A stretch of DNA of 47,153 nt, from NCBI GenBank assembly GCA_023645945.1, contig JALAIB010000022.1, forward strand, positions 1 through 47,153, given 5' to 3'. A program made the position numbers and the translations under genes. The stretch's first letter is position 1; each line of letters opens with the position of its first letter. The notes below the pieces were generated by a model. That model saw nothing but the letters and a program-made list of their open reading frames with translations. It was not told the DNA's origin and did no database searches. Positions 7,401 through 38,187 of this stretch are shown piece after piece. The stretch comes from Diploschistes diacapsis (taxonomy: Eukaryota).

Positions 7401-10344
7401 TTCTTTTTTGTGTGCGCGAAATCTTGGCGAAGGATCAACAAGCGAGCCCGGTCTTGCCGCCCGACAGACAGCGGAAACGTTCCTCCTATACTTTAGTGAA
7501 GTAGTATACATTTGAAATGTTCCTACGAAAGATTGGTTGCTTTCTTCAACAAGTATCCCATTTCTTGTCTCGCTGCTGCTAAGACTATGATAGATGTGCT
7601 ATCCAACAGCTGTTTTTCCGAAAGCCATGATGAAATGGATCTTCGTCACCGACTCTATATAGGTATCAAAGATTTGAAGCAGCTTCCAATGCCTGGTATT
7701 TTTTGATCATATTGCTTCCAGGTCTCCTCTTCCAGCCGTCTAGGACACCAAGAACCGCCGAGTTTGAATGTGCTTTAATTCAAGACTTCCATCGGGCATC
7801 GATGCTTGGAACTACATGCTAGAACAGTATGGTGTCACGGTGAGATGGCCAGAAAACCCGCCTGGACATGATGGTAGCGGTTGCAATCAAGCTTAAATAG
7901 TAGTAACCAATCATGAGCGCTAAGGCTATCTTCCACCCAGGTAAGGGGTATTCTACTGATTGGAAGATGAGAGCTGTATTCGTTTCTGATGGTATATTTG
8001 CAGTCGAGAATATTCGACTTTGAGTTCCAAAGTGGGCTGTGCCTCCACACATCCACTAACCTTAATGCTACCTAGTCACAGCCGTCAAACCTGCAGCGCC
8101 GAGAAAGGCCCATACCATAAGGGCCATAAGGTTGAGCTGCTTTTCACTCGCTCTGTCCGTTTTCCACGTGCTTGATCAACGGCTCCTGTATCATCTACGG
8201 ACGGCTCTGCTTGCCATTTGTTCACGGCCAAGGTTTAGGGCTGGAACGCATATGCAGAAACCAGAACATCGGTACTTAGGAACCTTCCGTAAGGTATGAG
8301 GACCTAACCTAACCTTTGAGTTCATCACACCCCCCAGATTCCTGTGCACAGCAGCACGTTCATATGAGCGATACCACAGCAGTGATCTATGTCTGATACA
8401 GAGCTTTCATTCGGACCTTTTTGTTCTTGCCATTCCCCCTCCTTGAAACTGTGACAACCTCAGCGTGGTATATCTCCGAACGTCACGGCTTTGCAAACGT
8501 ATCGCGGAGATGCTACGCGCTCATGTCTTGCGTAAGCTAGACATCACTCACCGTATGTCTCTCTCACGAAGGTAATTACAGAGCACGCCCAGCTGTAAGT
8601 ACAAACCGTAGCAGCTAGTTGGGGCTCGTGTTGAGTCGGCCCGCACTACTCTCGCCTCTGCAGCCGATCATCATCCTATCTCAAAAGATCTCGACATTCT
8701 TTCTCCGAAGTCTTACCAAAAGGGACGTTCTTTGATCACAATCGGCTTCCTTGATACTCCTGGAAATTCATGTAGAAAATACTTAAGGTTATGGTTGTCC
8801 TTCAACCAGCAGCCATCACGGCATGCAATGAGACACATGCTACTGATCCATGGGCAAAGTGTTTCTTCTTATCACATCAATTTTTAGATTGAGTCGGGTT
8901 TCCCACCGACGGCTTCCCTTGCGGATCTTCGCATCTTTTAGAGTTGATAGAAAGTCAAAACAGCCGTGCTTTTCGTAGATCCCCCAAATGTAGAATCAAG
9001 GCAATGAAATTCCAGGGACGCTATACGGAGTCGTAAGCGACGACACTTTATCGGTTGGAGACGGCAAGGAGCTTTGTCCTTGTATGGTCATCAATGGTGG
9101 TGTTCACTCAATGCACATTTCTCCAAAGCAATCCATTCCAGCTTTTTTTGATGGCGAGCGAAGTCCGATGTTATGAATGATAGACTGCGGAATCCTGAAT
9201 CCATGCAGCGGAGTCGTATCCACATACTCCGACCAACGGCCCAATGATCGCCGCGATAACCTCACTTCAGGCAGTATGTTTCATGACTTGTTCAGCTGGA
9301 TGTGGCGATGATACCCATCGTTTCAAGCACTCGAGAAAGGAAGGCGACAGGTCAGTGCTGTTAGATGGGACGGCTTCTGCTAGAGTGAGCCATCTGATGT
9401 ATCAATCCGAATTCATCAACATTTTCAACAGTCGCTGATAGCCTTGCGCCATGTTCATTCACCCCCCCGTCCCAGAGCAGTCAGCAGCTAGACTTCTGAG
9501 TGTGGGTAGGAAGCAAGTCAAAACGCTGTGAGCTTGGAGGTCTCCACCACTTACTTCAGCAAGCACAAGGAGACCAAAGTAAAGATATTGGAAAGTATAA
9601 GTCAAGAGAGCTTTCTTAACGGACAGGCCTTTCTTGTGCATCAATATGCCTAAAGGAACGAATGCTCTTCGACATCAAAAGAGAGTTTAGAGAAGCATCA
9701 CACAAAAGATAGGGCTGGCCACAGAACCCAGCCTGGAGCCCATCAAGTCAAGGCATGTTTGTCGCTGAGTAACGGTCATAACAAGAACCAATTCCCCGAA
9801 AATTCGCAGTTGAAAGCCGACTGTGCACTGGGTAACCACTTGTGCTAGACAGTTCACTCGAGCGCAAAGTGCAGCCGCTTCCTTGAAGAAAGCTGATATT
9901 GCGTATATGAAACCAGAATTAGCCAACAGCGTTTGGGGCTGCGGAACAGGAGGATCCGCATTCAGTGGAAAGTAATAGCTATCGCTATGATCTTCGGTGC
10001 ATACAGTTCAAGTCCTCAAGATCCGGCTAATGAGGGTGGCCGGTCCTCAGGATGGCAGCCCACCCCCTTAAGAACGTTGGGACTTCTAAGAGGGCCAAGG
10101 GGTCTTGTTGGTTCAGGTCTGGCGGTACAGCACCTTGGAATTCGAGATCCTCCAATGAAGGGTCCAATGGGGTGCTCTTGACAGCAATAATTGCTAGAGT
10201 CGGATGCGTTGAAACAAAAAGGTCAGGCAGAGCGGCGTCTTCTCAAAGGCGTAGAAGGGAGGGAAAGGGGCTGCATAGCCATGCCGGCACATACAACGTG
10301 GTAGCACCTCGACCACGTTTCTGCAGGTACTACTTTACATGTAG

Positions 10345-10362
10345 TATATATATATATATATA
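10345..10362. repeat. (TA)9 microsatellite, candidate left flank of the element
   Basis: tatatatatatatatata read directly from the sequence. Confidence 0.9.
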
Positions 10363-10543
10363 GATGCCCCGAACCTATGGCAACACGTGACGGCAAGCTG
10401 ATTAAGGCGTCGCTGCTTTGCTCCCTCTTTGCTCGCCCTCAGCCCCTCGCTGCTCCCTCGTTGACTAGTTGGCCGCTGTAATTCTCCGGTAACTTTAGAC
10501 GACAGGCTGACAGGGAGTCATTACCGGCTCCATGTTGCAAAGG

Positions 10544-10561
10544 GGAGCCATATATGGCTCC
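10544..10561. promoter_or_regulatory. Perfect 18-bp palindrome with a TATA core upstream of the captain
   Basis: GGAGCCATATATGGCTCC, ending 174 bp before the ATG at 10735. Its function is inferred only. Confidence 0.4.
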
Positions 10562-10734
10562 TTGACCTCCCCACCCCGTCATGTTGTGCCTGCGACCCAT
10601 TGAGCCGCCCAGCTCAACTTGGAGCCCTTCCGTTCTTGTTCGTCTCGCCCTTTATTCATATCACTGCATAAAGTGTCTTGCCCAATTACTGCTCCTTGTC
10701 AATCGTTCAAGTCTAGTCCTTCTCGCAATTCACT

Positions 10735-11633
10735 ATGGGGAAAAAACGAACCGCGGCAGAATTCTTCGATGACGCGGTGACAAACGGTCATGAACCACTG
10801 GCTGTAACTGATCTTAATGCTGATAAAGTTTCCAAGGGGATCGAGGATAGTACTCAGGTAAACTACAGACGAATGCTGGACCTTTGGGACGAGTAAGCTC
10901 TTCGTTTTTACGTTCTCGCACCTTATTTTGGCCCTGCGCAGGCTCGCTGACCGAGTGATGGAATAGATACGAGAAGCGAAACCCTGGTGCCTGTCCTTGC
11001 GATACGAAAACTGCGAAGCATTTTATTGAGGGTGTTGTCCACGGCTGTTCTGCTGGCAAGAAAAGTCCGTCTTTAAACACGATGCTTCAGCAGTGGACAG
11101 ATTTCGGAGCTGGTTGGAAACGACGGCCGGGCAATATGAAGATTTTATCCGAAACTTCAGAATCTATCTACTTCGTAAGTCCCCTAGCCTCTGTTTTACT
11201 CCTTCCTTGTTGCAGACGCAAGATCTAAAAGTCCTCTCAGTATATAGAAACTGAGCTGCGCAAAAAGTTCAATCTATCAATCGATCGGCGAACTCGGCAT
11301 TATATGACGGTGCAGCATTTTGTCATTCTGATGAAACATATGTGGAAGAAGGATTGGCATCAATACAGGCATCCACGAACATTAATACAGGATCTCGCAG
11401 CATACTTGCTATTCATCTACTTCCGCCAGGGTTGGCGAGTGTTTCGAATCCAATATGCGCCGGGCTCCGGTCGTGGGCTATGGTACAAGGTAAGCAACCT
11501 GACTTTCACGGCATAGTCGAGTCGTAGAATTATCACGAACTATGCTAATGGTTGAGAGTAGCACATCGACTTCGTTGTTTTTAAGAGTGAGAATGGGAAG
11601 GCTGAGATCGCGATCCGTGTCACAAGAGACGCA
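10735..11633 (+). pseudogene. DUF3435 tyrosine recombinase (Starship captain-like), frameshifted and 3'-truncated
   Basis: Manual splicing gives exons 10735-10892, 10967-11174, 11241-11489 and 11562-~11633. These read MGKKRTAAEFF...NYRRMLDLWDE/YEKRNPG...KTAKHFIE...QWTDFGAGWKRR.../YIETELRKKFNLS...HFVILMKHMWKKDWHQYRHPRTLIQDLAAYLLFIY-SARVGECFES..R-GSGRGLWYK/HIDFVVFKSENGKAEIAIRVTRDA, the characteristic DUF3435 N-terminal half. Frameshifts occur at ~11421 and ~11463. Confidence 0.85.
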
Positions 11634-11639
11634 CCGCTG

Positions 11640-14600
11640 ATACGCTCCAAGCAGCCTAGATTCCTCCCGGACCCCTACAAAAACTTGTATCGCTGTCCGA
11701 AGGCCACGGGTTGACGGTTTTTTCGACCTTTCTTTCCTTGTAATTGTTCACAGGTTCGTAACATATCAGCGCCAAGTCATTGTGCTAACATGTATAGGTA
11801 CACCGCAACTGCTGACCTAGCAGTGCTGACACCCATATCAATCCGCGGCATGGTACCCGAGACCATCAATGCATATGGAAACATGAGCAGCACAAGCCTT
11901 GTTAGGTCGAAGCTAAATAGCGAGGATACACTGCTATCCTTAGCTCGCAAAACCGCTAAAGCGATCGATTTTGCCATGGACAATGCTTTCGTTCCGCTGG
12001 AAAAGGTCCTTGCCAGCATTGAAAATCAGTCGCACAATACCGGATCTTATTCACGTGGAACGATATATCACAATACAAAGGTCCCATCAATTTTCGGGAT
12101 CGTTCTTCGGAAATGCTTGTGAAGAAGACTACCATGTTTGGAATATGCTTCAATGTATCACTTAAGTTCGACTATGCTATCGCAAGCGTAGAATATGACG
12201 CAGACAGGTTGAGTCCAAATTTCTTGAAACGACTGCTTACAGCTTTTGTTGATCTTGTGCATTCCATCTGTACCACGGAACTGGTGCTACCGCTTCGGTA
12301 TCTGAGCGGATACACCAGCATGGAGCTAGACCACATCCTCCGCTTCTCGAATGCAAATTTGCGAATGGAAGGCGATAGAAACGCCTTGTTACACCAGGGG
12401 TTCGAGCATCAGGCGACGGTTTTGCCGGAAAACATCGCTATAGCCTTTTGGAGTAAAGGTTGTTATCTGTCGACGACATATCAGGGGCTGGACTCTCAAG
12501 TCTGTTTACCGTCCCTTCATATTTATTATTGTTGTGCTGACTTTCTTCAAGTCAACCTAAATTGCAGCTGTACTAAAGCAAAAGTACAATATCGGACTTG
12601 GTCATTGTGTTCCTGTATACCTTGACCAATCGCCAGGACTTCTGGCTGCTATTCTCGGGGTTCTCAAAGCCGGAGCGATTTACACTCCTTTGGCCAGAGA
12701 CGGGAGCTGGTCTTTGAAGCATATTCAACATATATTACAAATCTGTAATGCCAAGGTCATCTTGGGTGATACTGCAATGATGCCAGGACTTAATATGACA
12801 ACATACATGATTTACCAAAAGTTGCGACGGAATCATCAAGAGAATGTATTGCACTTGGTTCAAGCATTGCATACGTGATCTGGACTTCTGGAACTACCGG
12901 GAATCCGAAGGGCATCCCGATAAAGCATTCATCAGCTGCTACTGCAATCTCCAGTATGTCAAAGGATATGTATCAAAGAACCTCCGGAGATCGCGTGTTT
13001 CAGTTTGCCAGTCCTATCTTTGACGCTTCTATTGAAGACTACTTCTCAGCCTTATCAGTGGGAGCTACATTGTGCATGGCGCCTCGTCAAGAATTACTCG
13101 AGGATATTGAATCAGCCATGATTGCCCTCCAACCAACATCGGCGACATTAACGGCTAGTGTGGCCGCACTAATAAACCCAGAAGTAATCCCGCTCAAGAC
13201 GCTGGTGGTAGCGGGAGAACCCTTTACGGAGTCGGTTAAAGAGGCATGGGCCCATAGCTCAACACGTTTAATCAACGCATATGGGCCAGCTGAAAATGCC
13301 ATGCTTTCGTAAGTTACTATACGTGATATCAAAGGAACCCTTAGCTTGTACTAACTTTAATAGGACTTTCAGCGTCGTAGAGACAGATACAGACATACGC
13401 TCAATTGGAATGCCATTTCCAACAGTGCGAATTGTTATACTAGATCCTTTACTTTGTCCGACACCGCTGTTAGTAGAAGGCGAAATCTTCCTAGGAGGGC
13501 CACAGCTTTTTGAGAATTACCTTGGTTTGGATCCGACTTCTCAAAATGTACAGATTGACCACGATCAATTTGGCCGACTCTATCGAACTGGCGATCTGGG
13601 TTACTTCGATGAAGCTGGGCAAATAATGTTTTCTGGTCGCAGCGACAGTCAAGTTAAGTTCAGAGGACAACGCGTTGAGCTGAGTGGTCTGAGCATGATT
13701 ATTGAACAGTGCCCAACAGTCAGCCGAGCTGTCGTCTTGGTAGTGATGAACAAGCTCATTGCATTCGTCGTATGGACAGGTCCCAATAAAAACAATACAA
13801 AAGATTTGACTGTGGACAAACTAAGTGCTTCTACAGACCGGAGATTGCTATTCTTACAGACCTTCCTTGGGACCAAGGTTTCGGTTGCCACTAATCCTCA
13901 AATCTGGCTAGAGCTGTCATATATGCCCTTTACGACCAGCGGCAAAACTGACTATCGCAGGCTGAAGCTTTGCGCAGAAACCTTAGGACATCATCGAGCT
14001 GAGAATAACGTCGAGCCAAAGAGCCCTTTAGAACAAATAATACATGATTGCTGCTCTACAGTACTTGGTTATGTTTCACTAAGTATAACTGCGAATATCA
14101 TCGAATTAGGACTGGACTCCTTTTCTGCTATGGCCCTTTGGTCCAAATTGCGAAATTCAATTCCGTGGCACACCTGGACACTCCACGATCTATTTTCGTC
14201 CTCAAGTCTCCAAGCATTGGTCCCAACATACCCACCAACGCCATTTGAGCTGTGTCCCACCGCAATCAGAATGCCGTTGGTCTCGACCTATGCCAGTGGA
14301 ATGCACAGACCGGTTTATCCGGCAAGTTCAACTCAGGAGCGCTTCTACTCCTGCCAAGAAATCTACAAAGATGCTACTTATAGCTGTCCCTTCGTATTTG
14401 AGCTGAGAGATCTGGATATTGGAGACATACAGCGAGCTGTCAAAGCAATTATCAAGAGAAATAGTATCTTTCGAACCACATTCACGTACGATAATGGAGT
14501 CCAGCAAGTTATTTCGTCAACCCCGAACTCCACCTTTACAGAACACCACTTGGTACAGCCAGACTATACCTCAAACGAGGCGGAGATGAAACGTATTATC

Positions 14601-17600
14601 GGTGACGACCTGGGCACGCCCTTTAATCTCAACAAAGGCCCTCTGATACGATGCCATGGATTTCGGCTTGACGAAGGGAGGCAGTTTATCTCCCTGAATA
14701 TGCATCATATTATTACGGATGAGTAATCGATACGTCTGTTCAAAAGTGAAGTAATACCCCAATGTTTAACCATCACTCCTGAAGACAGGTCCGAGACCGT
14801 AGCCCGACTGCAATATATTGATTATTGCCTGGAAGAGCAGCGATGCCTTTCTAATCCAGCATTTTATAAAGTCGCGGCAAAATTTTGGGCGAATCATTTG
14901 AAAGGCGTGGCTTTGCCACTGCGTTTGCTTCAATTGCGCAAGGCAAATATTGTCACAAAGTAGCAGAGTATCAGACACAAGGTTGAGCCGCAAAAGGGCG
15001 CTTTCAAATGGATTCGAAATCAGGGGGTAACATCGTTCTCGACTTGCCTTGCTCTGCTCCAAATACTTCTACTTCGCCTTTGGGCTGCGCAAGAGCCCGT
15101 TGTTATTATCCCGGTCTCTCAAAGACCTGATGATACGAACTCAGTCTACGGCTGTTTCATTAACACCGTACCGATACGTGCATCAATGGACGGATCATTA
15201 TCCCTTGAGAAAGCTCCCAAAGACACTGCGAAGCAACTATCGAATATTATTCAACATTCGTACCTGCCTTACAAATCTATTCTTCAACATGGAGAACTTC
15301 ATGCGGATGATATTCAAGTTATGTTTACCTATCATGACGCTGGCCAGAAATCGTATATTGGTTTTACAGAAGCAGAGCATATTCTTCCGACGGAGATAGC
15401 GACTGTAGGTGCTAAGTTTCCACTCAGCCTTTCAGTCATTGAAAGCCGGTTAAACAACACCTCAACGCTAGAGATAGTGCTTGATTACGATGGGCACGAA
15501 TTCTCACATGCTGAGATGACGAGTATTTGTTGCCACTATGCCACGTTGCTGCTTTCAGCGTCGAAAGATAACGGAACCACGCCTATTAGCCAACTGGACA
15601 TTCTCAGCCAAGCAGATAATGTTTTCTTGGGGAACAATCGTGGGAGACTAGAGACTGAAAAAGCTTCGGATTTGCTCGTGCATGAGATTATTCTCGCGCA
15701 GTGTCTGAGGTCACCGAACGCTATAGCCTGTTGGTATGAAGGAATAGAAGAAGTTACATAGAGTGAATTATGGTCAAAGGTTGAGAGGCTCTCGCAGCAC
15801 TTTTCGCGCTTTGACATACTGCAAAATAGCAAGGCATGTATCTTCCTAGATGCGGGTATTGAGCGAATTGTTGCAACTGTGGCCCTACTCCACTGTGGAT
15901 TTGCTTATGTGCCACTGGACGTCCATTCGCCAGCAGCCCGGAACGCTACGATCGTGGAAGACCGCAAACCTCAATTTCTCTTGGTCGCTAATAATTGCCA
16001 AGCAGAATACCTCCAGGCTTTGTAGACCCTGAACGAGGAATTATCAAAGGTTGGCAGTATGGTGGATCTCGAGTTCATCGGCAAGGAGGCTGTCCATGAT
16101 CAGCATTTCTTGCCTCACAGGAGTTGTCGAGCAGACGAGAAGTCGATAGCATATGTGCTGTACACAAGCGGTTCAACCGGCAGACCCAAAGGTGTCCAGA
16201 TTGAGCATCGAGCTATTCGAAATTCGCTACAGGAGCACCAACGTTTGTATCAACTGGGCCCAGGAACACGCCTCTTACAATTAGCCCCTTGGACCTTTGA
16301 TGTGTCGGTTGTTGATATACTTGGAAGACTCACTTGTGGCGCAACTCTCTGTCTTGGAAGTAAGGATTATCTACTTACTGACCTTACCAGAGCTATCAAC
16401 ACTATGAAAATATCACACCTGGCAACAACCCCAACAATGATCTCTTTGTTAACCCCAGCCGAAGTCCCCACAATCTTGGTGCTTGCTATTGGCGGAGAAC
16501 CCATGACAAGAGCTTTGCGCGATACTTGGGGAAACGCTGCAATGCTTCTGAATGTGTATGGTCCAACTGAAACTTGCGTTAACGTTCTTAGCTGCCTGGT
16601 GCGACCGCAATCCGATATCAGTGTTATTGGGCGACCCCTCAATAATAACATAGTATATATATTAGATGAACGACTTTACGAGGTTCCACCAGGTACTCCG
16701 GGACAGCTGGCCATAGGTGGGGTACAAGCTTGCTCGAGGTTACCTAAACAGACCTGACGAGAACAAGCTGTTCATAGAGCATGAGAGATTTGGTAGGCTA
16801 TACTTAACCGGTAAGGCGTGACAAGGTGTTTGTGTTCCAGTAACTCATAACTGTTCAGGAGATCGTGTTAAGTTCATGCATGACGGAAGCATCTCATTTC
16901 TGGGCTGAATTGACAATCAAGTCAAGCTCCGAGGCCAAAGAATCGAGCTTGGCGAAATCGAAGCAATTGTTACTGCTGAACCTGGCGTGGAGCAGGCAGT
17001 CGCCCTTCTTTGTGGCAGTGGATCCGCTGAGTGCCTGGCTGTTAGGTATTGCTTGAGAGGTAGATTGCTAGCCAGTAACAGGACACTCCAAACCCAGCAT
17101 ACCAAGGATTCGTTGGCGATGACTGGTAGACTTCATGCGAGACTAAGCGCCGTCGTACCATCATATCTCGTGCCCAAGTACTGGGTACTGTTGACTTTTA
17201 TGCCGATGACCACGAATTGTAAGATAGACCGCCGGGCACTCAGCATGTTTATCACGACACTATCTACTAGAGAGAAAGCTTTATTTACACACGAGATCAT
17301 CCAGCCAGGTATACGTTCGTCTCAACCTTTATCCACCACGAAAGAGAAGATTATCGGACAGTGTGTTCAAGAGGTCTTGGAAACAGATACGGTTTACAGG
17401 GACAGTAATTTCTTCTCACTCTCTGGCGACTCTATATCGGCGATTAGACTATGTGCGCTTCTACGAAATCGTGGCATTATCATCACGGTGAAAGAGATCT
17501 ATCTTCGACCCACCATTGCTCAGCAGGCAGTTTTCGCGAGATACACTTCATATCGTCTTACAGACACTCCAAGCTATCCGTATGGCACTATTCAGAAAAC

Positions 17601-20600
17601 GCCAATCATGAGCTGGTTCCTTTGGTCATGCAAGAAAAATCCTCACTGGTACAATCAGAGCTACGTCTTGAAACTTTCGAAGGCCCAAGATCTCGAAAGA
17701 ATAGAACTGGCATGGGAAACGATCGTAGCTATGCATCCTATGCTCCGATTTCGGACTCACATCGGGCAGTCTGGTATCGAGGTCACAATCCCAGACACAC
17801 CAGGCACTAACGATTTCCGCGTTTTCTGGTGGGATGTCTTGACAGAGCAACAAGTGTTTGATCTCTCCCTTCATGTACAGTCAGGGCTTCATCTTGGGCA
17901 TGGACCCATCTCCGCATTGGACTGTTCATGTTGGCAGGCAGCAGCTATTGTGCGATAGCTGTACATCATTTAGCTATTGATATCGTTTCTTGGCACATTA
18001 TTCTAGACGATCTTGAGAGGACTCTCCAAGGGCAAATGAAACCTATTCCAGAACACAGCAGTTTCTTCGACTGGTCTAAACATGTCTCACAGCTACGCCA
18101 GCACGAAGGTTTATTGATTCAGCGAAACCAGGAAGTCACCGTCTCGCAGTTTAGACACCCGAATACAAAAATCGCTCCGGCATTCGAAGAGATGTCCATC
18201 TACAACACTGTTTTGTCAAGCCGAGTTCTAAGTTTTAACATCGACCCCTCATCAACGAGCTGGCTCCTAATGGAAGCCAATACTGCCTATCGGACTGAAG
18301 CCGTTGACTTATTACTGAGTGGGCTGGTCATGGCCTTTAAGCGATGGCGGAATATGAACAAGATTGAAATTCGTTTCGCATCTCACGGCCGAGACTTTCG
18401 GAACGAGTCTTTGGATGTATCCAGAACCGTTGGCTGGTTTACCTACATGTTCGATATTTTGCTATCATTTCCTGCGAATACACCCCTAGATCAACGCATC
18501 GCTCACGTAAAAGATGCAAGAAGCAATTGTACCGCCAATTCTGGTTTCTCGAAGCATTTTGAGATAATGACAAACCACCCTGTGATATGCTTCAACTACT
18601 CCGGAGCTTATTCCAACTCGAACGTCAATACAACCTCCCCCGTAATAGAGTTAGCCGAAAACCGTCGCGATGAAGACCCTCAAAACTGCCGCTCTGCCGT
18701 GCTTGATATCGGATGTAGTGTGGTTGATGGATCGCTAATTATGGCTATTATTTACAGTACCGCTCTACACGAGGAACACGAGGTGTCTGCCTTATTAAGG
18801 TTATGGCAGCTGTCAATGGCCGACAAATTGAACTTTTGCCGCGAAAGTCACTATAAATATCACTTCACTTCGAGTGACTTATCCTTCTTCACAATTGAAT
18901 ATGCCGATTTGACAAAGCTTGTGGAGACAAGCCTCCTTCCTTATGGTCTCGAACCCCGTATGGTTGAAAATATTCTTGAAGCAACAGATATGCAACGTGC
19001 GATGGTACTCCAGAGTCAAGAAAGCGGGTGCTATATTGAATCATTCTCCTATGATATCGAGGGTGAGATCGATATTCTAATGTTCATCAAAGCATGGTCG
19101 GAAGTTGTGGCGAAGCACAGCGTTCTCAGAACCGTTTTCGTGCCTTGCGGCCTCCAAGGGCAAAATTGGGACAATCAAATGCTGCAGGTCATTTTAAGGA
19201 TGGATAATCTAGAGGAGCGCGTTTTCTTGGAAAAGCCGAATACAAAAACTTTTACTGCTGAGTACGGAAAATCGCTCACTCGATGCTATATCTACGACAC
19301 CAAGGAGAAAGGCTTTCACTTTACTTGGCAATATCATCATGCTATAGTGGACGGATGGTCTAGCAACATTATTTTGCGAGACTTTGAGAGTGCGTACCTC
19401 GGAAAACACATTGCGAGCATCTCTGAGTTCAAGCAAGCAGCAATACAGATAAATGCCTGGTCTAGGTCTTCGGCAACGGGTGCATTCTGGAGGACGCAAC
19501 TGATGGAGGCTCCGCCTACGATCTTGGTTGATTACACCAATGATACTATGAATAACGACAAAAATCAATTTGACTCTCGTTTTGAATGGGGTCTTGATTG
19601 TTCGGTCAGGAAGCTCGAAGACTTTGCAGCGTCCCACAGCCTCACACCTTCTGTAATATTACGTGCTGCGTGAACAATGACCCTGTCATATTACACCGAT
19701 GAGGAAGATGTAATCTTCGGAGCCACTACATCTGGAAGGGCCCTCGATATTATTGGTATTGAAGATATCGTAGGGCCTTGCATCAATACAGTTCCATTCC
19801 GTGTGCAAATAGACTGGGACGATGAAAAAGGAAAATTTCTGGCAAAAGTCCAGGAGAAAAACACCGCGATCATCGAGCACGAAGCCATGTCCTTACATCA
19901 GATCTACAAAGAGTCAAGAACACAGAATCTTTTCAATACCGTCATCGTTTATCAAAATCATCCCAGATTCAAAGCTAATACAGCTTTACCATTCAAAATG
20001 ACACTGACAAACGTTGAGGAGGCTACGGAAATTCCACTCAATGTAATGATAGGCCAGGATGAGAATGCATTATTTCACGTCACGGTCTTATTACATGGGT
20101 GGAAATTCTCGATACAGTTCCTGCAGAACATACTGACAAGCTTCGGCCTTGCTTTGAGTGGATTATGTACAACTGAGGGATCAACCAAGCAGCAATTAAA
20201 GGATGTGGTCATGTTGAGTAAGTCCCATAAAGACAAGATCAGTTCCTTGGGATGTGGTGTCGGTTCTTCCTTATCTGAGAGTGTTGGTTTATGGCAGATG
20301 TTTGAGGAGCGAGCGTTGTCCGCGCCCAGCAGCCACGCTATGGAATTTCGCCAACCAGCCCAGCAACAAGTGTTTACCTACAAACAAGTTCTTTCCTTGG
20401 CCAAACAAGGGTCACAAAATCTCCTTTCCAGAGGCATTCAGATAGGAGACCGAATAGCATTGTATTTGGACAAATCACCAGCTCTAATATTCGCCATCCT
20501 GTCAATCATACGACTTGGCGCCGCTTGTATACCAATTGAGAAGAATATCCCGGCTGATCGTGTAAAAATGATAGTCCAAGAGTCACAGCCTATATTGGTC

Positions 20601-23017
20601 ATTTTAGATGACCTTGAGGAACACGCTTCGTGGAAAGCCCAGTGTAAAACAATCTTCGTCAGAGATTTCCTTAGTCCGCAATCGATTCTGACAAGTCCAC
20701 TTCCTGAACCTCCTGCTGAGAGTGACCCCAATCGACTCACAGCTATCCTCTTCACTAGTGGCACCACTGGAGTACCGAAAGGTGTCCGTATGCCGCAGCG
20801 ACAGCTCGTTGGTTACGCCACTACTATGGCACGTGCTTATCGCTATGACACTAGCAGTCGAATCTTCTGCTTTTCGCGTTATGTATTTGACGTAGCAATC
20901 AGCGATATCTTTGGTGGATTCTACAGTGGTGCGACGATCTGTCTCGCACCTCAACGAGATACAATAAACAATCTCTCGTACCTGCTGAATCAATTTAGAG
21001 CAACGACAGTGAACCTTACTTCTTCTGTTGCATCTCTCCTAGCACCGGGAGAGATACCCAATCTCAGGTCGATGATATTGACAGGCGAGATATTGACAGG
21101 CGAAGCTCTTACGCCCACTCTCATACAGACCTGGTCACCACTCATTCACGTGGTTAACTCCTATGGTGAGTGAGTGAGCGAGCCATGTTATATCTATGTA
21201 CTCACTACGAGCCAGGTCCTACAGAAGCAGCCGTAATCACGTGGACAGATGTTACGCCCAACTCAGACCCTCGATGCATTGGTGAGGTTGTCTCTGGCAT
21301 GGAAGTTGTGATCCTCAACAAGTGGCATCGGAAAACTCCAATCGGAGTCAAAGGCATCATTTTCACTACTGGCAAGTAACTCTCTATGGGATACCTCAAT
21401 CGGCCAGAACTTACGGCAGATCATTTCATCTACAGTCTAGACTCACCAGACACCCTCATGTACAACACAGGTGTGTCGAGTATTGAATGTTTTTCGAGCA
21501 AGACTGACGATATCAAGGTGACAATGGAGCCTATGACTCTGCAGGAAAAGTGTTGCATCTTGGTCGGAAGGACAATCAGCTCAAGCTCCATGGTCAGCGG
21601 ATTGAACTGACTGCTATAGAAAACGTCATGTCGCAGAATGGTCCAAGTGTCACTGTATGCCTTCTAAAACTTCCTGGTGAAGTCACACAGCTTGTCGCTT
21701 TCTTCCGGCTCGACACTTCTCCCTCAAAGTCGTCGTTCGAAGAGCCCGAAGTGATTCTCAGTCAGAAGGCCGAAATTATTTCACTGCAAATGCGATCAAG
21801 GGCTACACGGGTTCTGCCATCATACATGGTGCCTAAAGCAAACGTGGCGTTAACCTGTCTTCCACTGACCGCAAACGGTAAGGTAGATCGAGTTACCTTA
21901 ACTAAGTGTTATATAGAGAAGTTTCTTCCTCTGCAGGCGGAGGCGCTTGTGGTTCAGATCGTAGAACCAACAACTCTTCTTGAACGAAGCATACATGCCG
22001 TTGTTTCTGAGATGTTCAATCTCTCGCAACTGTCGATCGAGACCGATTTATTCACGTTAGTGCTCGATTCATTATCATGCATGAGGCTGGCCAGCACACT
22101 CAGAAGAAAGCTCAAGCTCCCTGTTAACCTCCAGTGTATTATGGAAAATCGCACTGTCAGAGATTTAGCTGGTAAGCTCAGCAGTCATGTAACAAATCAG
22201 AATGACAAGAGGGCCATAACAGATGTATCAATTATGATCCATTTTTCGTCTCTACCGAACGCAGCCGTTCCCACCGTTTTCTGCTACACCCATCATCGGG
22301 ATTATTCTTCGAATACAGGAACATCATTCAGTACCTGCGCGAGATAAGGGTTGTGGGTATCAATAACCCTAGGTTTGGTAGTTCGAAGGGTTTCCGTAGT
22401 ATTGCCGACATGGCCTTTGAATATGTACGTGATGAAAGCACAAGCCCGGTTCAAGCTAATCAGCATAGTACACTGCGATTACTGAATTTCAGCAAAGAGA
22501 GCCCTACCTCATACTAGGATACTCTTTCGGGGCGCATGTGGCGGTTGAGATTGGCCGCCTGCTTCTCCGTAGGAAACCCAGCTGCGTTGTGAAGCTGATC
22601 TTGGTGGATTCCTCTGCAATTCCTCTTTCTGCAAATTATCCAGCCCCTTCCACCGTGGCCACCGTCGTTAGTCGTCTCGGGCTTGAAAGCATGCCTGTTA
22701 CAACATATGGGGAGAGAGACTTCGTCCAAAATCTTGAATAAGAAGTTGAGCGCAACCTAAGACTGATGGCCAATCACGAGCATGTATTCTACCCAGGAGC
22801 GGCTACTTTTCTCAAGGCGTATGCTTCGCCCGACGCAAGGTCAAAGTATCAAGACGACAAAACCAATGGTTACGCTCATCTGATCGGGGACCTGACTTCG
22901 GACACCATCTACGGTGATCATTACAGAGTGTTCAAGGACGGGGAGTATATTGATCACAATGGTGGAGTTCTGAGGAAAGCTCTTGGTCTGGCCGAGATCA
23001 TTCAGAGTCGCGTTTGA
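11640..23017 (+). pseudogene. Non-ribosomal peptide synthetase pseudogene, [partial C]-A-T-C-A-T-E-C-A-T-TE, 5' end missing
   Basis: A-domain motifs: WTSGTTGNPKG (~12880), YTSGSTGRPKG (~16160), FTSGTTGVPKG (~20750), plus YRTGDL and GRxDxQVK. T domains: LGLDS (~14105), LSGDS (~17420), LVLDS (~22057). C domains: MHHIITDE* (~14700), YHHAIVDGWS (~19332). E domain: HHLAIDIVSW, SRTVGWFT, FNYSG (~17960-18600). TE: GYSFG (~22517). In-frame stops at 12558, 14724, 14961, 15759, 16023, 16906, 19671, 21377 and 22739, and frameshifts at ~16728, ~17920 and ~22285. Introns include 16811-16858, 21166-21215 and 21471-21517. Confidence 0.93.
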
Positions 23018-24178
23018 GACAAGTCCTTCGAAAGCAACGAGGCAGTATGTGACGGAAAGAGACATTGTAAAACGATATTCATGTTACTTTTCTAGTTGGC
23101 ATACCTCTAGATAGTTTACCAGCTCAACATGAGACATGACGTACCCGGCATCGCCCTGTTTAATAGTCCATGCATCGCTCCTTCCTTCTCCACGTCTTTC
23201 TTAATACTGCTATACGTAGGTGCCCATTCTAATTGCCGATCTAACATTTTCTTCCATTGCTGTCCAGCTGTCCATGCTTGCAATGACGCCTCCGTGTAGG
23301 CCAAGTTCACCTCTTCAAGCACTCTTTGGCCAGCAAGCCCAAATGCACGCATTCCCACATCTGCTAGACCGGCCTCTTCTCTAGTAAGTGCATCCAACAG
23401 ACTTCAGCAGCATGGACGCCCTCCTTGGGCGGGATGGTACATTGTAGACAGCCACGTCGGTCTCCCAATGTGCCACCAACCACTCCACGACTCGAATAGG
23501 AGCCTACTCGTCTCTGCCACCGCACCTTCAATTTTAAATCTCTGTGGTTTTGTAGGAGCTGCTTCCAGAGTCGGGCCAATCGTTCCCGACTAAAGTGCGA
23601 AGAGCGTAGATGTATTGCAGCCGGATTGGGCCCAGATATCACGACGTCAACGCGAGGCCTAACCGACAAAAATATGCGAGAGCGCCACCTGCACGTAAGA
23701 AGCCGGCGCGCCGTCAATCAAGATCCATTTGTCCTCCACCCAGTTTGGTATGTTGGAGACCTCCTTTGCTCTCTGGTACCAGGGTCGCGGAAGGACGGTA
23801 CGATCTTGCAGTCAATTGTGAATGGAAGGAGCCCTCGCAATCCATAAGCTTTACGCATGAGGAGAACGAGGAGGCCTGGAATATCAGCACGAGCGACTGT
23901 ACATATAGAAAAGCTGGGAGGCTTGGCGGGCCATCGTCATTAGTAATCCGCTTGTATCAATCATGTGATTAAAGCGCAGTGAGCTTGCCAGCAAACTCAG
24001 AAATATATCCCTTCTGAAATCCAACAGCTATATGCTGAATGGAACTGCTGCCATCTATTTCAAAACCAAGACTTACCCAAACAGAGGACAATCCAGCATT
24101 TTCAGATCTCTGAGTGTCAAAATCTCCCTTCTCAGCCGTGTTGGACATCACCGATCTTGACGATGCTCGATCTTCAGA

Positions 24179-25312
24179 ATGGGCACGCCTGCCGATTATC
24201 TCCCCAGGGAGCTATCTCATGCTACGATCAACGCTCTCATAGAATCTATAGGCCTCCCAAAGCCAAGCCAAATAACCATGCCACACGTACTAGCGCAGTA
24301 TCACTCCATCTATATGCTCTCCTTCCCCAGCGAGGATCTGGTCCTTCGTGTCTCCGGGCCCCACCTACCGAAGATCAAGACCGAGAATGAGGCTGCAATC
24401 ATGGCTTGGGTGTCGAAGAACACTTCCATTCCCGTTCCGCGTGCGGTAGGATATAATTCGTCGACTAAGAACGCTCTGGGCTACGAGTACATTCTTCCTT
24501 CGCGCGCGCCAGGCCATGCTCTCAGCGATGTCTACAAGTCTCTCAACGAGGCACGGATCAGCGCTATCATAGATGAGCTAATCGACATGCTCGCTCAGCT
24601 ACATAGTCATGAGTGGCCGCAAATTGGAGGCCTCAGGTTTGACAAGGCTGGAGGATTCGAGGTGGGACCGGTATTGGAGGAGACTTTCTGGCAGGTACCC
24701 GATATCGTCAAGTACTGGCCTGCTGGCGAGAGCGTTGACACGCTTAACATTGCTGGCCCCTTCCCATCATACGTCGAATACATTACCGCACACGTCCGGA
24801 AATATATCTATCTAATTAAGGTTCATGAATCGCTGGCCTTTATGCGAGATATTATACCTAGGCTCGAGATTTTCTTGAATGCGCTTACAAGAGACGCCGA
24901 TGAGTTGAATCAGGTGAAGTTACGTCTCGCTCACAAAGATCTCCATTTTGCGAACGTGTTGTACGACGTTGATGCCCGCAAAATCACTGCTATCCTCGAT
25001 TGGGAGTTTTCAGGCATCGTCCCATTTACAAGATGGAACCCAACCAGAACTTTCTTGTGGAATGGTCATGATAGTGAGGATGATCTTGCGGAGAAACAAC
25101 GATTGTTCCAGATCTTTCTCGATCGATGCCATGTTGGTAATATCAAGATTCCCGAGGATGCAGCGTTCTCGTCTCCAAAGCAAGAAGACATGCAGTTGGC
25201 AGCCAACTTCTTACGGGCAATCACAGAGGTCACTCCGCGCAGTCAGAAAATAGATGTCGTTGGAGGCTGGAAAGATGCGGTACTGCAACGAATATCGTCC
25301 TTCGGGGCATAG
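24179..25312 (+). CDS. Aminoglycoside phosphotransferase (APH)/protein-kinase-like family protein
   Basis: Intact 377-aa ORF with LVLRVSG, KTENEAAIMAWV..NTSIPVP, the Brenner motif HKDLHFANVL and ILDWEFSG. Confidence 0.88.
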   Translation: MGTPADYLPRELSHATINALIESIGLPKPSQITMPHVLAQYHSIYMLSFPSEDLVLRVSGPHLPKIKTENEAAIMAWVSKNTSIPVPRAVGYNSSTKNALGYEYILPSRAPGHALSDVYKSLNEARISAIIDELIDMLAQLHSHEWPQIGGLRFDKAGGFEVGPVLEETFWQVPDIVKYWPAGESVDTLNIAGPFPSYVEYITAHVRKYIYLIKVHESLAFMRDIIPRLEIFLNALTRDADELNQVKLRLAHKDLHFANVLYDVDARKITAILDWEFSGIVPFTRWNPTRTFLWNGHDSEDDLAEKQRLFQIFLDRCHVGNIKIPEDAAFSSPKQEDMQLAANFLRAITEVTPRSQKIDVVGGWKDAVLQRISSFGA

Positions 25313-25776
25313 ACAGGAGTTTGAGCTATCGAACACGCTTTGGTAAAATAAACAATGATCTGAATGACTTGATACTCCAAGATGCTTTCAGCTTCAAGTA
25401 GCTTATTAATAGAAGTAGGATTAGAGAGCTGGTGGACAAGCGACCCTATCTCCCATGAAATGGTATGGAGATCCGAGATTTTATTGTTAAGGCGAAGTCG
25501 AGCTAAATCAAACTCTCCCCAACCAGATCTTTAGACATCCATCCCAGACAGCTATCATCCAGCTTAAAAAGGAGGTGAGCTGCCCGAGGGGTCTGGTATT
25601 TCCTCTTCCTTCCCATGAAAATAGCCATGTACGCCTCTTCTTCCGGTACTCGCAGCCAGTTTGGGACCTGTTTCGTTTGGCCCACCCCTCGACTTCAATC
25701 TCGCTATTCTCTGGTCGGTCCGAAACCGCATATCAACGATACACTGAACCTCCGGTGAGATGGCTTAAGATACTAA

Positions 25777-25958
25777 GGCCCTGTTTGGTGTTTTGTGTAG
25801 AGCATGTGTAGAGCTCCTGCGTAGACTGTACGAGATCACGTGCCCCTATATGCTCCCACTAAACGCGTTACGTAGAGCTGCCTTTACGTAGATGGTGGCC
25901 GTCATCTATGTAGAGCTGCTCTATCGTAGAGCTGCTCTATGTGCAGCCAAACAGGGCC
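25777..25958. mobile_element. 182-bp MITE-like element with PIF/Harbinger (Tourist)-type terminal inverted repeats
   Basis: Perfect 12-bp TIRs: GGCCCTGTTTGG (25777-25788) and CCAAACAGGGCC (25947-25958). Flanks are TAA on the left and TGA on the right (a near 3-bp TSD). GTAGAGC(TGC) is repeated internally. Confidence 0.7.
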
Positions 25959-25960
25959 TG

Positions 25961-25975
25961 ATATATATATATATA
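25961..25975. repeat. (AT)7A microsatellite, candidate right flank of the element
   Basis: atatatatatatata read directly from the sequence. Confidence 0.85.
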
Positions 25976-27092
25976 CACACGTGTTTGACGTTATGTAAGA
26001 TGAAGACCCTAGTACTGTAGGTCTACTTGGCAGCTACCCCGTGCACTTAGTGAGAGCAACGTAGCCTGCAATCCCAGAAAGCATGAGTCCAACATCAAAG
26101 GCTCCTTCGACAGAGACTTGCTGAATAGAGAATGAAACCAAACATCTGATGTATGTCCCAATCACATACTGATAGACAGAGGAGAAAGTGGTAGGCTAAC
26201 ATGCTATTATAGTCCTTCGCTTCGCTTAGGAATGAGTGACGAAGCGTCTTACAGAAATAACTCCTTCCAACAAGTCAGCATTCTAGCTATGTCTCTAACT
26301 TGTCGTGAAGTATTGCGCATGATGACGGTGAATGCGACATGTCTCGCCTGCGCCTCGGAAGGGCTGAAAGGGCGTGGTGCTGAATGGTTTAGAATGGCCT
26401 TTTCACCGACTTACTCTATAGCTACAACGTGCACGTGGCTTGGAGTAAGTATCCATGCTACTATATTTGTGCTATCACTACGCCGAATATCACCTTTGGA
26501 TACTACCCTTCCTGGCGGGCTGTCTATATCTGCTCTGAGATATAAGGCCCCCACGCATTCAACTTGAAGGTTCGTGCTCCACTCCAGCAAAAATTACTGG
26601 GTTGCATCGGACGACTCGCCTCTTCCCAATCATGAACATCAGTCATCAACCAACAAGACTGGTCTGAAGCTGATGCAGTACCGAGAGCCTCTATGAAGAT
26701 GATACCTCCGTCAGAGAACAAACACCGCCCACTATTGTCTGAGGCCCTCCAGAGATGCTACACAGATCCATCCTGCTTTGGTCCAGCCTCAATCCCTCGC
26801 CGTAGGTATGGGGAACACCATTCCGGCTTGGCACTATTGATGATCATGCTGCGTGTTGTAAATATGGGCATTGTTTTCAGCTCTGAGAACGCCGATGGCT
26901 TGGAGTTGGATTCACGCCTGCTTATCAGCTTCTGGAGACCCTGATTGTCCCTTATAAAGACCGTTGATGTCCCACCGACTCCTTCTGGATCTTCCAGTAC
27001 AGTTTCATTCTATACATTGTTACATCCCACGTTATTTCATATTTCGTACAAAAGTTTCGTTTCCATAGTCCCGTCTTTCTTTTATAACGACC

Positions 27093-28399
27093 ATGAGGTT
27101 CCAGCTCCTAGGTCTTGTTGCCCTGCTGGCCGGGAGCGAAGTTGCTCTGGCCAGCACCAAGCAAACCGTTTACTGCCAGGGCTCAGGGAACTGCGACCCC
27201 AAGGCCGGGCCATCCACCACGATCAAGACGACCATCGCCGCTGCCAAGCGTGATGTCCCATGGCTTCACGCCGCCGTCAAGAGGGATGTCGAGGCAATGG
27301 ACACATTGACCTCGCTGTTCCGAAGGGACCCAGACTTCGAGTTTGCCATGTCCATCCTTGGTATGATCTGCAATTGGAGCCCCGAGATTTTCGAACTGCG
27401 ATATTAATACATCCTACAGCACGTAACGCCGCGGCCGCCGACAAGAGCGTCAGTCAGATTGTTGCCGACATCCATGCCGGTACCGTCGACCCCATCATCG
27501 TCGGGGCCGCCAAGGCCAAGGGTCTTATCAAAGGTACTGTGAAAGGTGTCAGCAAGGCACGTCGTGGCCTTGAGGGCCGAGCCCAGAACGCCGCTGCTGG
27601 CTCCAAGAAAGGCGGCAGCGGTGCGCAGGGTAAAAGCATCGGCGGTAACAAGGGCGAAACCCACTCCGCCGCCGAAATCGCCGAGCATATCACCTCCGGC
27701 GGCCACATTCCCGAGAGCATTAAAAAAGCCCTCGCGGAGTCCCCTCATTACAAAACCAATGAGAAGTCTGCCTTGGGCGGCAAAAAGTCCGGCGGGGAGA
27801 ATGGTGCTTCCAAGACTGGTGGCCCCAAGGGCGCAGCCAAGAAGGAGGGCACCAAGGCTCGCCGCGACGCTGGCTCCCTATTCGATTTCGATTTCGAAGA
27901 CATCTTCGCCCGCGCCGACAAGAAGGAGGTGCACCTGGAAGATATCTCCAAACTCGTCGACAAGGCCCAGGATGACCAGAAGGTGGCCGACGAGATCCTC
28001 AAGGACATCAATGCCAACGATAAGATCAAGTACCACGCCAAGAAGCTCGCCGTCAAGTATGGCGATGCCGAGGAGGATGGTGATGTCAGCCTGGACGACA
28101 TCTCCTCCATCGTCAGCGCCGCCAATGACGACGAGAAAGCCAAGAAGGCCGTCATGAAGTTTTTCAACAAGGACAAAGTGCAAGCCGTCACTTCCAAGCT
28201 GATCAAGGACCACGTCACCAAGGATAACAAGGACAAGAAGGACAAGAAGGACAAGAAAGACAAGAAGGGCAAGCGCGATGCCGAGGCCGACACTGACTTG
28301 GAGGATTTCTACCTCGCGGCTCGCGAGGCGGAGGCTGAGCCGGAGTTCGACTTCGACGAGGGACTCTTCGTCCGCGACTTTGACGAGTACAGCTACTAG
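27093..28399 (+). CDS. Secreted multi-peptide precursor with Kex2 (KR/RR) and Ste13 (EA/DA/EP) type processing sites, 415 aa, 2 exons
   Basis: Exons 27093-27360 and 27420-28399. The intron GTATGA...TACAG joins the two track ORFs in frame. It has a signal peptide MRFQLLGLVALLAGSEVALA, dibasic sites AKR/D, VKR/D, FRR/D, ARR/G, ARR/D and GKR/DAEAD, and AAR/EAEAEPE. Codon bias is strongly GC3, with TATAAA at ~26953. Confidence 0.85.
28220..28270 (+). repeat. In-frame 9-bp tandem repeat encoding (KDK)n
   Basis: aaggataac aaggacaag aaggacaag aaggacaag aaagacaag. Confidence 0.85.
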
Positions 28400-32905: not shown

Positions 32906-33598
32906 TCATAAAGCCTCTCCACGAATATTGAGCATCTGCAGATTCCTAAGAATACTAGGACTATACTCGTTAAGGTTGGCAAAATCGAGCCGACTGTTCT
33001 CAGGTTCGAAGAATCGGCCAGCACCCGATGAAAGACTGGTTTGTTTCCATGAGCGCACCGGTATGTCTTGACTCTCCCATACGGACTGCAGCGCCTCGAC
33101 CGCTGCGACATACTCTTCCTCCCTATCAAAAAAACCATTCCGCTGAAGGAGGGTAATGACCGAGTATATCCACCAGCGGCAACCTCCTCCACCGTCGGAG
33201 AATTGGTATCTGTCATATCCGCTTGTTCGAATGAGATGCACAATGTCCGTAACGGTTTTGGGTTGCTTCATCGAAATATGTGCTGTCTTGATCGTGGCAG
33301 GATCCATGAGGTCCCACTCCTTCTGGAAGAGAATTATGGCCCTTTTCCTGTCATTACCGTATGGAACAGCTTCCAATCGTATTGAGGTGGAGTCTGAAGT
33401 TGGCAAGTATATGACCCAGTCGTTGGTTTGCAGTGTCTTCTCACATGATGACATTGACGATGGTAGGTTGACCGGACTAAAAGCACCAAGAGTCACTCCG
33501 AGGACATTGGAAATAGCGCACTTGCGTTCTGCCTCATCTGGAAGCCATCTTATAGACTTGACTGTTGAGTTAACTGGTCTTGTGAATGCTCTAGACAT
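32906..33598 (-). CDS. Fungal hypothetical protein with a conserved W.IYL ... Y.F..GG.GCRWW motif
   Basis: Long ORF with probable ATG at 33598. Motifs NDWVIYLPTSDSTSIRLEAVP and TVTDIVHLI..SGYDRYQFSDGGGGCRWWIYSVI resemble a widespread uncharacterised fungal family. Confidence 0.7.
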   Translation of the reverse strand: MSRAFTRPVNSTVKSIRWLPDEAERKCAISNVLGVTLGAFSPVNLPSSMSSCEKTLQTNDWVIYLPTSDSTSIRLEAVPYGNDRKRAIILFQKEWDLMDPATIKTAHISMKQPKTVTDIVHLIRTSGYDRYQFSDGGGGCRWWIYSVITLLQRNGFFDREEEYVAAVEALQSVWESQDIPVRSWKQTSLSSGAGRFFEPENSRLDFANLNEYSPSILRNLQMLNIRGEAL

Positions 33599-34083
33599 CT
33601 TAGAGCATACCGACAGCATAGGATTGATGTGAATTATTAGCAAGACCCAAGAAAACCCTTTCAATGTATCAGCACACGACTGTTATGATTCATGGGGGAG
33701 GGAATCAAATTCACGTATGTTAATTTCGACTGTTTACATTTTTCCTTGGTGTTCATTGTCTCATGAGAGATCCGGATCTAGTTCAATTGTTTCGCATGCT
33801 TCTGAATAGTCAATCATACAAAACTGTTGACAAGTAGGTAGTGGAAATGCAAGTTTGTCCAGACTAAAGGTGACTCCCCTTGCATACTGGGCAGGATTCA
33901 TCCAAGTTCAAAACTAGAAGCACGTAATGCTCGGGTATCTGCAACCGGTTGCATCCTTCCTCCACCTTTCAGCGCGTAGTCTAGAATTAGAGCCCACAAC
34001 AGCGCCGAAGTGCTCCAAAACGACCTTTCCCAGCAGGAGTGTAAAAAGTCTCAAACTCTTTATGCGATGTAAAGGCCTCCAGA

Positions 34084-37821: not shown

Positions 37822-38187
37822 GCCTCTTGTTACAGGTAGGCGGCTTAAAGAAGTTTGAGCTCTTGCAAGCTTGTCGTATGCCTTGGCAATGCTGTGGGCG
37901 TTCTTTAGCAGGGAGTACACAAATGGCATTAAGGAAATAAGGTACCGTTCTTTTGCCAAGCTTCCATGCGGGCCACTTCCGCTGTGTTCATCTATGGCAC
38001 TGTTTGCTGACATTCCCCGTTATCTCCGCACCAACTATCTAGGGCAGCGATGTTGTTTCAGTAATGGAATTGTAGACTTCTTCCACAAGAACAGGCCACG
38101 AATGATAGTGGTAGGAGGTGATAAATATCGACTGTGGTGAAGCTGTGGCAAGTCATACACCGCTGAAAGACCCGGATTGTCCAAAAG

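Follow-up and report, generated by a model that had tools for sequence, protein, structure and literature searches.

The window analyzed here is a stretch of 47,153 nt (contig JALAIB010000022.1 of the Diploschistes diacapsis assembly GCA_023645945.1), and the subject of this report is a block of 15,598 bp within it, which is considered as a candidate derelict Starship. Starships are giant cargo-carrying transposons (Gluck-Thaler & Vogan 2024, PMC11162782; Urquhart et al. 2023, PMC10104507). The block lies between two TA tracts and contains the probable remnant of a DUF3435-type tyrosine recombinase (the 'captain' type of gene), a pseudogene for a nonribosomal peptide synthetase (NRPS), a gene for an APH-like kinase, and an element resembling a miniature inverted-repeat transposable element (MITE). 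The features of the block, in the order in which they are read on the forward (+) strand, are as follows.

10345..10362: (TA)9 tract, the left border of the variable block (detected with Tandem Repeats Finder)
10363..10734: non-coding leader of 372 nt, from the (TA)9 border to the recombinase ATG, with no open reading frame (ORF) having a Pfam match
10735..11633, + strand: stump of a putative DUF3435-type tyrosine recombinase ('captain'-like), with exons at 10735-10892, 10967-11174, 11241-11489 and 11562-11633
11630..22990, + strand: NRPS pseudogene, the 3' 54% of a synthetase of ~6,800 aa, with the domains (C)-A-T-C-A-T-C-C-A-T-TE
22991..24178: unannotated spacer from the end of the NRPS to the kinase, in which neither strand matched a Pfam family at E <= 0.1
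24179..25312, + strand: APH-like kinase gene (Pfam PF01636), an intact ORF of 377 codons (24179-25309) followed by its stop
25776..25959: MITE-like element of 184 bp with perfect 13-nt terminal inverted repeats, AGGCCCTGTTTGG and CCAAACAGGGCCT (inverted-repeat search)
25961..25975: (AT)7.5 tract, the right border of the variable block (detected with Tandem Repeats Finder and a motif scan)

A preliminary description of this DNA had proposed that a spliced DUF3435-type recombinase remnant, reading inward, is the first gene inside the left TA tract, and that an NRPS and an APH-like kinase follow it before a second TA tract; this anatomy was confirmed. The ATG of the recombinase (10735) is located 372 nt past the (TA)9 tract, the gene is on the + strand and reads inward, and no other ORF with a family match in Pfam was found between the left border and the stump. 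The three introns (74, 66 and 72 nt) are all of the GT-AG type. When an 830-aa protein of Aspergillus thermomutatus (XP_026613046; P0074) was compared with the window by tblastn, its residues 5-59 and 53-232 were aligned to the four exons (E = 7e-52). A phmmer search of exon 3 against 1.84 billion representative sequences returned 44 proteins at E <= 1e-3 (15 at E <= 1e-10), mostly short fragments; eleven of the 44 were scanned with Pfam, and three long ones passed the DUF3435 threshold (P0074, E = 2e-16 (2.2e-16); P0093, 9e-12; P0097, 1e-15). A local hidden Markov model (HMM) built from five long relatives matched only the four exons among the 1,214 six-frame ORFs of the window (E = 1e-9, 2e-17, 3e-27 and 2e-6), with profile positions 1-239 only. 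These matches support the assignment of the stump as the N-terminal part of a DUF3435-type tyrosine recombinase, homologous to DUF3435 proteins, the surviving part of which overlaps only the first ~85 of the 418 positions of the Pfam DUF3435 model. The family to which it would belong looks mobile and multi-copy elsewhere: one relative (P0079, 62% identical to exon 3) falls in a 90%-identity cluster of 36 members, several of which occur on 3-10 contigs each.

The stump is, as judged from its sequence, dead, being truncated and frameshifted with a catalytic domain that is not intact. The stretch of exon 3 at 11419-11478, which matches residues 185-204 of the Aspergillus protein and includes the conserved TSARVGECFES, is in a shifted frame, and the equivalent of the invariant R188 falls within this shifted frame. 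Similarity to the relatives ends at RVTRDA (11633), where all five have RDAK. The catalytic motif of tyrosine recombinases consists of Arg, Lys, His, Arg, His/Trp and Tyr. The columns R335 and Y381, which are invariant in the relatives and which we take to be catalytic, had no counterpart anywhere in the window when the local HMM was applied to the six-frame ORFs. A possible second recombinase fragment on the minus strand (23469-23711; tblastn, E = 0.007) was discarded, as it was not confirmed by the profile search. In the Joint Genome Institute (JGI) metagenome contigs, the profile of the five captain relatives detected seven loci, four of them of 1.1-1.5 kb and the longer ones only 33-34% identical, and these have no bearing on the 15.6-kb element; two of the loci (L004 and L005) are near-identical, 18-22 kb long, and carry a captain-family relative of 34% identity (match at 10001-12053) with 10 kb of flanking sequence on each side. 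A 22-mer taken from the 5' leader gave no match in the same contigs.

The NRPS follows on the same strand. The Pfam domains Condensation (C), AMP-binding (A), PP-binding (T) and Thioesterase (TE) were found in the order (C)-A-T-C-A-T-C-C-A-T-TE over 14 separate ORFs, so that the repeated C-A-T modules and the terminal thioesterase of an NRPS are both present. Positions 11790-22990 are collinear with residues 3133-6778 of the 6,793-aa NRPS of Peltigera leucophlebia (MCJ1342383.1; P0119), with which the window copy also shares the A-T-TE tail; the identity is ~40%, which marks the Peltigera protein as a family relative and not an ortholog. A weak collinear extension (E = 0.006 in a small search) reaches residue 3092 at position 11630, which lies three bases ahead of the last codon of the recombinase. 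The first ~3,090 residues (5' 46%), which the Peltigera protein has and the window copy lacks, were found nowhere upstream in the window. Two frame changes leave room for canonical introns, and these are likely introns (13310-13363 and 21166-21214). The remaining defects are the many stops and frameshifts that set this copy apart from the Peltigera one, namely nine in-frame stops (14724, 14961, 15759, 16023, 16819, 16906, 19671, 21377 and 22739) and at least six frameshifts, that is, frame changes with no room for an intron (near 12020, 12560-12625, 12795, 16720, 17916, 21520-21545, 22280 and 22450-22470). Contigs of the sequencing run that is the probable source of the window (X1, see below) match the window letter for letter across the NRPS region; thus, the defects were not introduced when the window was assembled. 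The NRPS, read in this way, is a 5'-truncated pseudogene with no continuous reading frame, and the delivery of a working peptide-biosynthesis locus is not supported.

The kinase ORF is the only one still open in the block. It has a Pfam PF01636 match of E = 2.5e-18 (67.2 bits versus a cut-off of 23.2), its translation contains no internal stops, and the HKDLHFAN and LDWE motifs are kept. The search for relatives gave 330 proteins at E <= 1e-10, the best being 58-68% identical (68% for the top one). It resembles fungal APH-family 'kinase-like' proteins (from Xylogone, Amylocarpus, Peltigera and Loxospora) in length (377 versus ~383 aa), in identity over the full length (58-68%) and in the retained motifs. 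Relatives of the NRPS and of the kinase (P0001/P0272, P0005/P0278 and P0006/P0284) are on contigs of equal size (46,747, 194,402 and 37,404 bp, respectively) in three other assemblies. Because these contig sizes are identical, the two genes are probably a conserved neighbouring pair, the contigs having been compared by size. This suggests that the pair is conserved in diverse fungi and could travel as a unit, and a role of the kinase in the NRPS pathway may be considered on the same ground. By the same comparison of contig sizes, no recombinase relative was found to share a contig with an NRPS or kinase relative, which is weak evidence either way. As for the spacer between the two genes, an Atlas look-up of its minus-strand ORF at 23367-23717 gave a best score of 0.87, which is a lead only and is uninformative.

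Apart from the two tracts at the borders of the block, the window has no long TA tract. When (TA)7 was sought with at most one mismatch, seven overlapping matches were obtained over the 47 kb, all of them at the two border tracts, and none was expected from 100 shuffles; both tracts named in the preliminary description are therefore real. That the sole two tracts coincide with the two borders is what would be expected if one target tract had been split. A motif, TTTACA / TTAC(N7)A, was seen at 10334-10346, 5 nt left of the (TA)9 tract, and is listed in a published curated table as the direct-repeat or target motif of Hephaestus- and Phoenix-type Starships. As a Hephaestus-type site it was rejected as a chance occurrence: TTAC(N7)A and TTTACA have 31 and 11 matches in the window, respectively, with no direct partner at the right end, and the only counterpart to TTTACA near the right end is an inverted TGTAA (25994). 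The MITE-like element lies one base from the right TA tract and is non-coding. No second copy of it was found in the window; contigs of three sequencing runs (X1, X2 and X3) match the MITE stretch alone and then continue into unlike sequence beyond 25772 and 25959, and for this reason the MITE is considered to be multi-copy in these fungi.

Public sequencing runs were searched with positions 5363-15362, and three holders were obtained: X1 (a lichen metagenome, the sole run that contains the query in full and the probable source), X2 ('organism A', from another study; share of the query, 0.17) and X3 (a rock metagenome; share of the query, 0.07). No RNA data set was among the runs listed. Positions 8000-27999 were then compared with the contigs of X1-X4 at the 85% likeness setting, with the left TA tract (10337-10371) masked as a repeat. 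In X1, one contig covers 8000-15205 with no difference from the window; the left junction is therefore real and not an assembly artefact. The X2 contigs (depth 65-82) cover the left flank at 8732-9679 and 9705-10176 and the right flank at 27111-27522, with ~3-6% other letters (~96% identical) and several small indels. One further X2 contig (depth 24.5) joins position 10326 to position 25964 and skips 15,637 bases, the whole block. An empty site at about 10345/25975 had been forecast before this comparison, and the joint answers to that forecast, though with one contig and a shorter side of 20 letters. A 20-letter match falling within 20 nt of each of the sole two TA tracts is unlikely to be due to chance; the match leaves the exact breakpoint unfixed. 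X3 has contigs on both flanks, none over most of the block and none joining across it, and X4 had no matched contigs; neither was used as evidence on the joint.

Some further features of the relatives' contigs were recorded. X2 also contains contigs of low depth (3.5-4.1, versus 65-82 for the flanks), which are 96-99% identical to parts of 20120-25182 (the kinase and the 3' end of the NRPS); none of those listed falls on the middle of the NRPS. Their source may be a second, block-bearing strain, perhaps with a copy that was further deleted. Compared with the window, X3 lacks the 293 nt at 9777-10069 and carries 29 different letters in their place; in X2, 22 letters are added after 9771 and the 76 nt at 26040-26115 are absent. 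Between lineages, the intergenic stretches flanking the site (9771-10070 and 26039-26116) are indel-prone.

From these observations we slightly favour, at a little better than even, the view that the block at ~10345-25975 is a derelict Starship-like cargo element of a Lecanoromycetes-like lichen fungus, crippled by one internal deletion. The element, with the DUF3435 captain as its first inward gene, would have carried a large NRPS gene and the APH-like kinase, and would have integrated into a (TA)n microsatellite that now flanks it on both sides. A single internal deletion would have taken the captain from ~residue 233 on, together with the first ~3,090 NRPS codons, and fused the stumps at ~11630. 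One deletion suffices for both truncations, because the recombinase and the NRPS stumps are on the same strand and share one breakpoint; with the sequence between captain residue ~233 and NRPS residue ~3092 restored, the ancestral element would have been at least ~27 kb. The element would then have been immobile, the NRPS would have gathered its stops and frameshifts through ordinary mutation and not through repeat-induced point mutation (RIP), and a TA-seeking MITE may have landed at the 3' junction. RIP itself was considered as the cause of decay and rejected, as TpA/ApT (0.60-0.80) and (CpA+TpG)/(ApC+GpT) (1.19-1.38) are alike in the block and the flanks. Of the earlier proposal of a decayed Starship, the captain-first stump, the cargo-like genes and the empty-site joint stand; terminal inverted repeats (TIRs), accessory genes, a second copy and an outgroup are missing from the case.

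A number of observations count against this interpretation. Concerning the recombinase, the proposed check, a Pfam DUF3435 match of the window's own spliced translation, failed (none of the four pieces at E <= 0.1), and since this direct scan was negative, the DUF3435 assignment is one of transitive homology. In addition, eight of the 11 scanned relatives did not match Pfam DUF3435; most of these are short fragments, but the long P0081 (from a Geoglossum umbratile metagenome-assembled genome) and P0109 are also among them. Everything past the RDA(K) position, ~600 residues, is missing from the stump. Concerning the element, no DUF3723, PLP (patatin-like), NLR or FRE (ferric-reductase) gene was found in the Pfam scan of the 36 ORFs between the tracts on both strands. 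The two end regions (9800-10800 and 25300-26400) share only the TA tracts and chance matches of up to 10 nt in either orientation, so no TIRs were found; the flanking repeat is a TA microsatellite on both sides, which is not a diagnostic direct repeat and which could equally have mediated a deletion. RIP indices give no RIP signature in the block. A foreign composition of the block was examined and rejected as uninformative: its GC content is 47.1% versus 49.5-49.7% for the flanks, and the third-position GC content (GC3) of the kinase is 0.56, inside the spread of the flank genes (0.43-0.71), so that there is no contrast with the flanks. No second copy or second insertion site of the block was seen in X1, in which it appears to be single copy.

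The empty site has its own weak points. The X2 joint was seen in one contig at 85% likeness, its shorter side has 20 letters, the letters between its two sides are not known, and joints of this kind can arise from repeats. The X2 depth in the bin 10001-10667 (53.7) is above what cover ending at ~10336 would give. The X3 contig tracks the window to 10423, after which 255 letters diverge; the loose-end letters had no match in the window with up to three mismatches. The left breakpoint may accordingly lie some tens of bases, up to ~100 nt, inside the tract, or the first ~60 nt of the block may be repeated elsewhere. Finally, the window, X2 and X3 form an unrooted trio with no outgroup, and for this reason insertion and loss are not polarised.

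The main competitor is one that we regard as unlikely but still a real contender. Here, an ancestral, resident and decaying NRPS-kinase cluster lay beside an unrelated dead DUF3435 gene, nothing was transposed as a unit, and the X2 relative lost the block by a microhomology or slippage deletion between the TA tracts. The borders are an identical TA repeat of 15-18 nt, which is an adequate substrate for such a deletion; TIRs and any direct repeat other than the microsatellite are absent, GC, GC3 and RIP indices of the block are like those of the flanks, Starship accessory genes are absent, and the polarity of the indel is not resolved. For most DUF3435 genes of lichen fungi, no defined element is at hand to which they belong; captain-like genes are many and elements few in the Peltigera super-pangenome preprint (bioRxiv 10.64898/2026.06.16.732702). 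However, this explanation requires two rare TA tracts of independent origin, the sole two in 47 kb, and the genes of the lost block would begin with an inward-reading recombinase before which one of the tracts stands, by chance, at 372 nt; moreover, the recombinase belongs to a family that is multi-copy elsewhere.

A bolder form of the transposon view, which we hold to be rather doubtful, is that the block is a fossil of an undescribed lichen Starship lineage, which would target TA microsatellites and ferry a conserved NRPS-plus-kinase pair between mycobionts. Two features hint at related, perhaps intact, copies in the genomes of relatives: the divergence of the X3 contig after 10423, in the first ~60 nt inside the border, and the surplus X2 depth in the bin 10001-10667.

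It is very improbable, in our estimation, that a captain element had interrupted a resident NRPS gene in its middle, in which case the kinase and the 3' half of the NRPS would belong to the host, and the 5' half of the NRPS, like most of the element, would have been deleted later. The recombinase stump does abut NRPS codon ~3092, and Starships are known to enter genes and other transposons (PMC11162782). Such a history is disfavoured because the NRPS 5' half is nowhere upstream, and it needs at least two deletions, one of them ending exactly 372 nt upstream of the captain; furthermore, the X2 joint drops the NRPS 3' half, the kinase and the captain together, so these behave as one unit. Scarcely credible is a chimera of metagenome assembly in which foreign DNA was attached at the low-complexity TA repeats: the window probably does come from a lichen metagenome, and the right junction crosses a multi-copy MITE and a TA tract with no single X1 Logan contig spanning it, but in a separate set of contigs from the source run the left junction is bridged (8000-15205) with no difference, contig depths are of the same order across the flanks and the block (76-130), and the flanks are adjacent in X2, so that an insert joined to the left flank most simply runs on to the right flank.

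The setting of the block was also examined. The window is fungal DNA, and short GT-AG introns occur in its genes. For a UPF3-like ORF (38433-40067), the best named relatives are in lichen-forming Lecanoromycetes (Lignoscripta, Xylographa, Lasallia and Letharia; ~50% identity), and others reach 60%. The neighbourhood had been described as a housekeeping one, and this applies to the right flank, which is recognisably so, with Snf7, a CS-domain protein, a calcineurin-like phosphatase, UPF3 and a FoP-domain protein; the left 10 kb gave no confident Pfam domain. An ORF with a DUF7770 match (E = 3.5e-25; 32909-33682, - strand) lies among the right-flank housekeeping genes. The positions of two of these genes are as follows.

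34087-34713: Snf7 (Pfam)
36532-38019: calcineurin-like phosphatase (Pfam)

The locus presents, in a lichen mycobiont, a compact captain-first layout with apparent secondary-metabolite cargo, and in one relative the site appears to be empty. Should the insertion reading hold, natural-product genes of lichen mycobionts have been moved by giant transposons, and such elements decay in place to 'orphan' cluster fragments; if the block belongs to an undescribed lineage, it would represent a canonical lichen Starship, with the captain first and secondary-metabolite genes as its cargo. What is new is a decayed example of an already known kind of element, and because the element is inactive, the finding adds an example and opens no new field. 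Note that, as a practical warning, cluster-mining tools would count this NRPS, though it is dead and truncated.

Published Starships have the DUF3435 recombinase first at the 5' end, followed by cargo, with direct repeats and occasional TIRs; they insert into genes and other transposons, are called via alignment to an empty site, and their inactive copies are termed derelict or degraded (PMC11162782). The same source gives a size floor of 15 kb, with 15,020 bp for the smallest of the predicted elements and 14,634 bp for one of those curated, and direct repeats of which many are 2-6 bp (4-15 bp for curated elements in part 1 of its Table S1). The accessions of the Aspergillus protein (P0074) had no match in the portion of its supplement that was searched. 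Compared with these, the present block has a captain cut to ~232 residues and frameshifted, no TIRs, no RIP and a single copy, and its flanking repeat is a TA microsatellite and not a 2-6 bp or longer specific direct repeat. It resembles them in the captain-type gene that is first at the 5' end and reads inward, in the non-transposon genes downstream, in the presence/absence relation to a contiguous empty site (the one-contig joint), and in a length just over the 15-kb floor.

Biosynthetic clusters on Starships have been reported in other fungi. In lichen fungi, the Peltigera preprint describes many captain-like genes and few elements, and some of its captain-like genes are followed by biosynthetic genes; canonical elements or true cargo are not demonstrated in its account of these genes. 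The earliest description of Starships in lichen-forming fungi dates from 2026 and concerns Tangerine (Tagirdzhanova et al. 2026, PMC13486527). The Tangerine elements are 85-102 kb long, more than half of which is nested transposons with RIP, and have direct repeats of 4-5 bp and TIRs of 10-12 bp; their captains mostly lack the core-binding domain, and a 17.9-kb candidate carrying only a recombinase was dismissed by the authors (PMC13486527). In contrast, the present block is only 15.6 kb long, retains the N-terminal part of its captain only, and has one MITE as its sole nested transposon; unlike Tangerine, it carries the remnant of a secondary-metabolite gene. The two share a Lecanoromycetes-like mycobiont as the host, a captain placed ahead of all other genes, close to the 5' end (at 1,390 bp in Tangerine and 372 nt here), and boundaries set against the empty site of a relative. 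Among published Starship categories, the block fits that of derelict or degraded elements.

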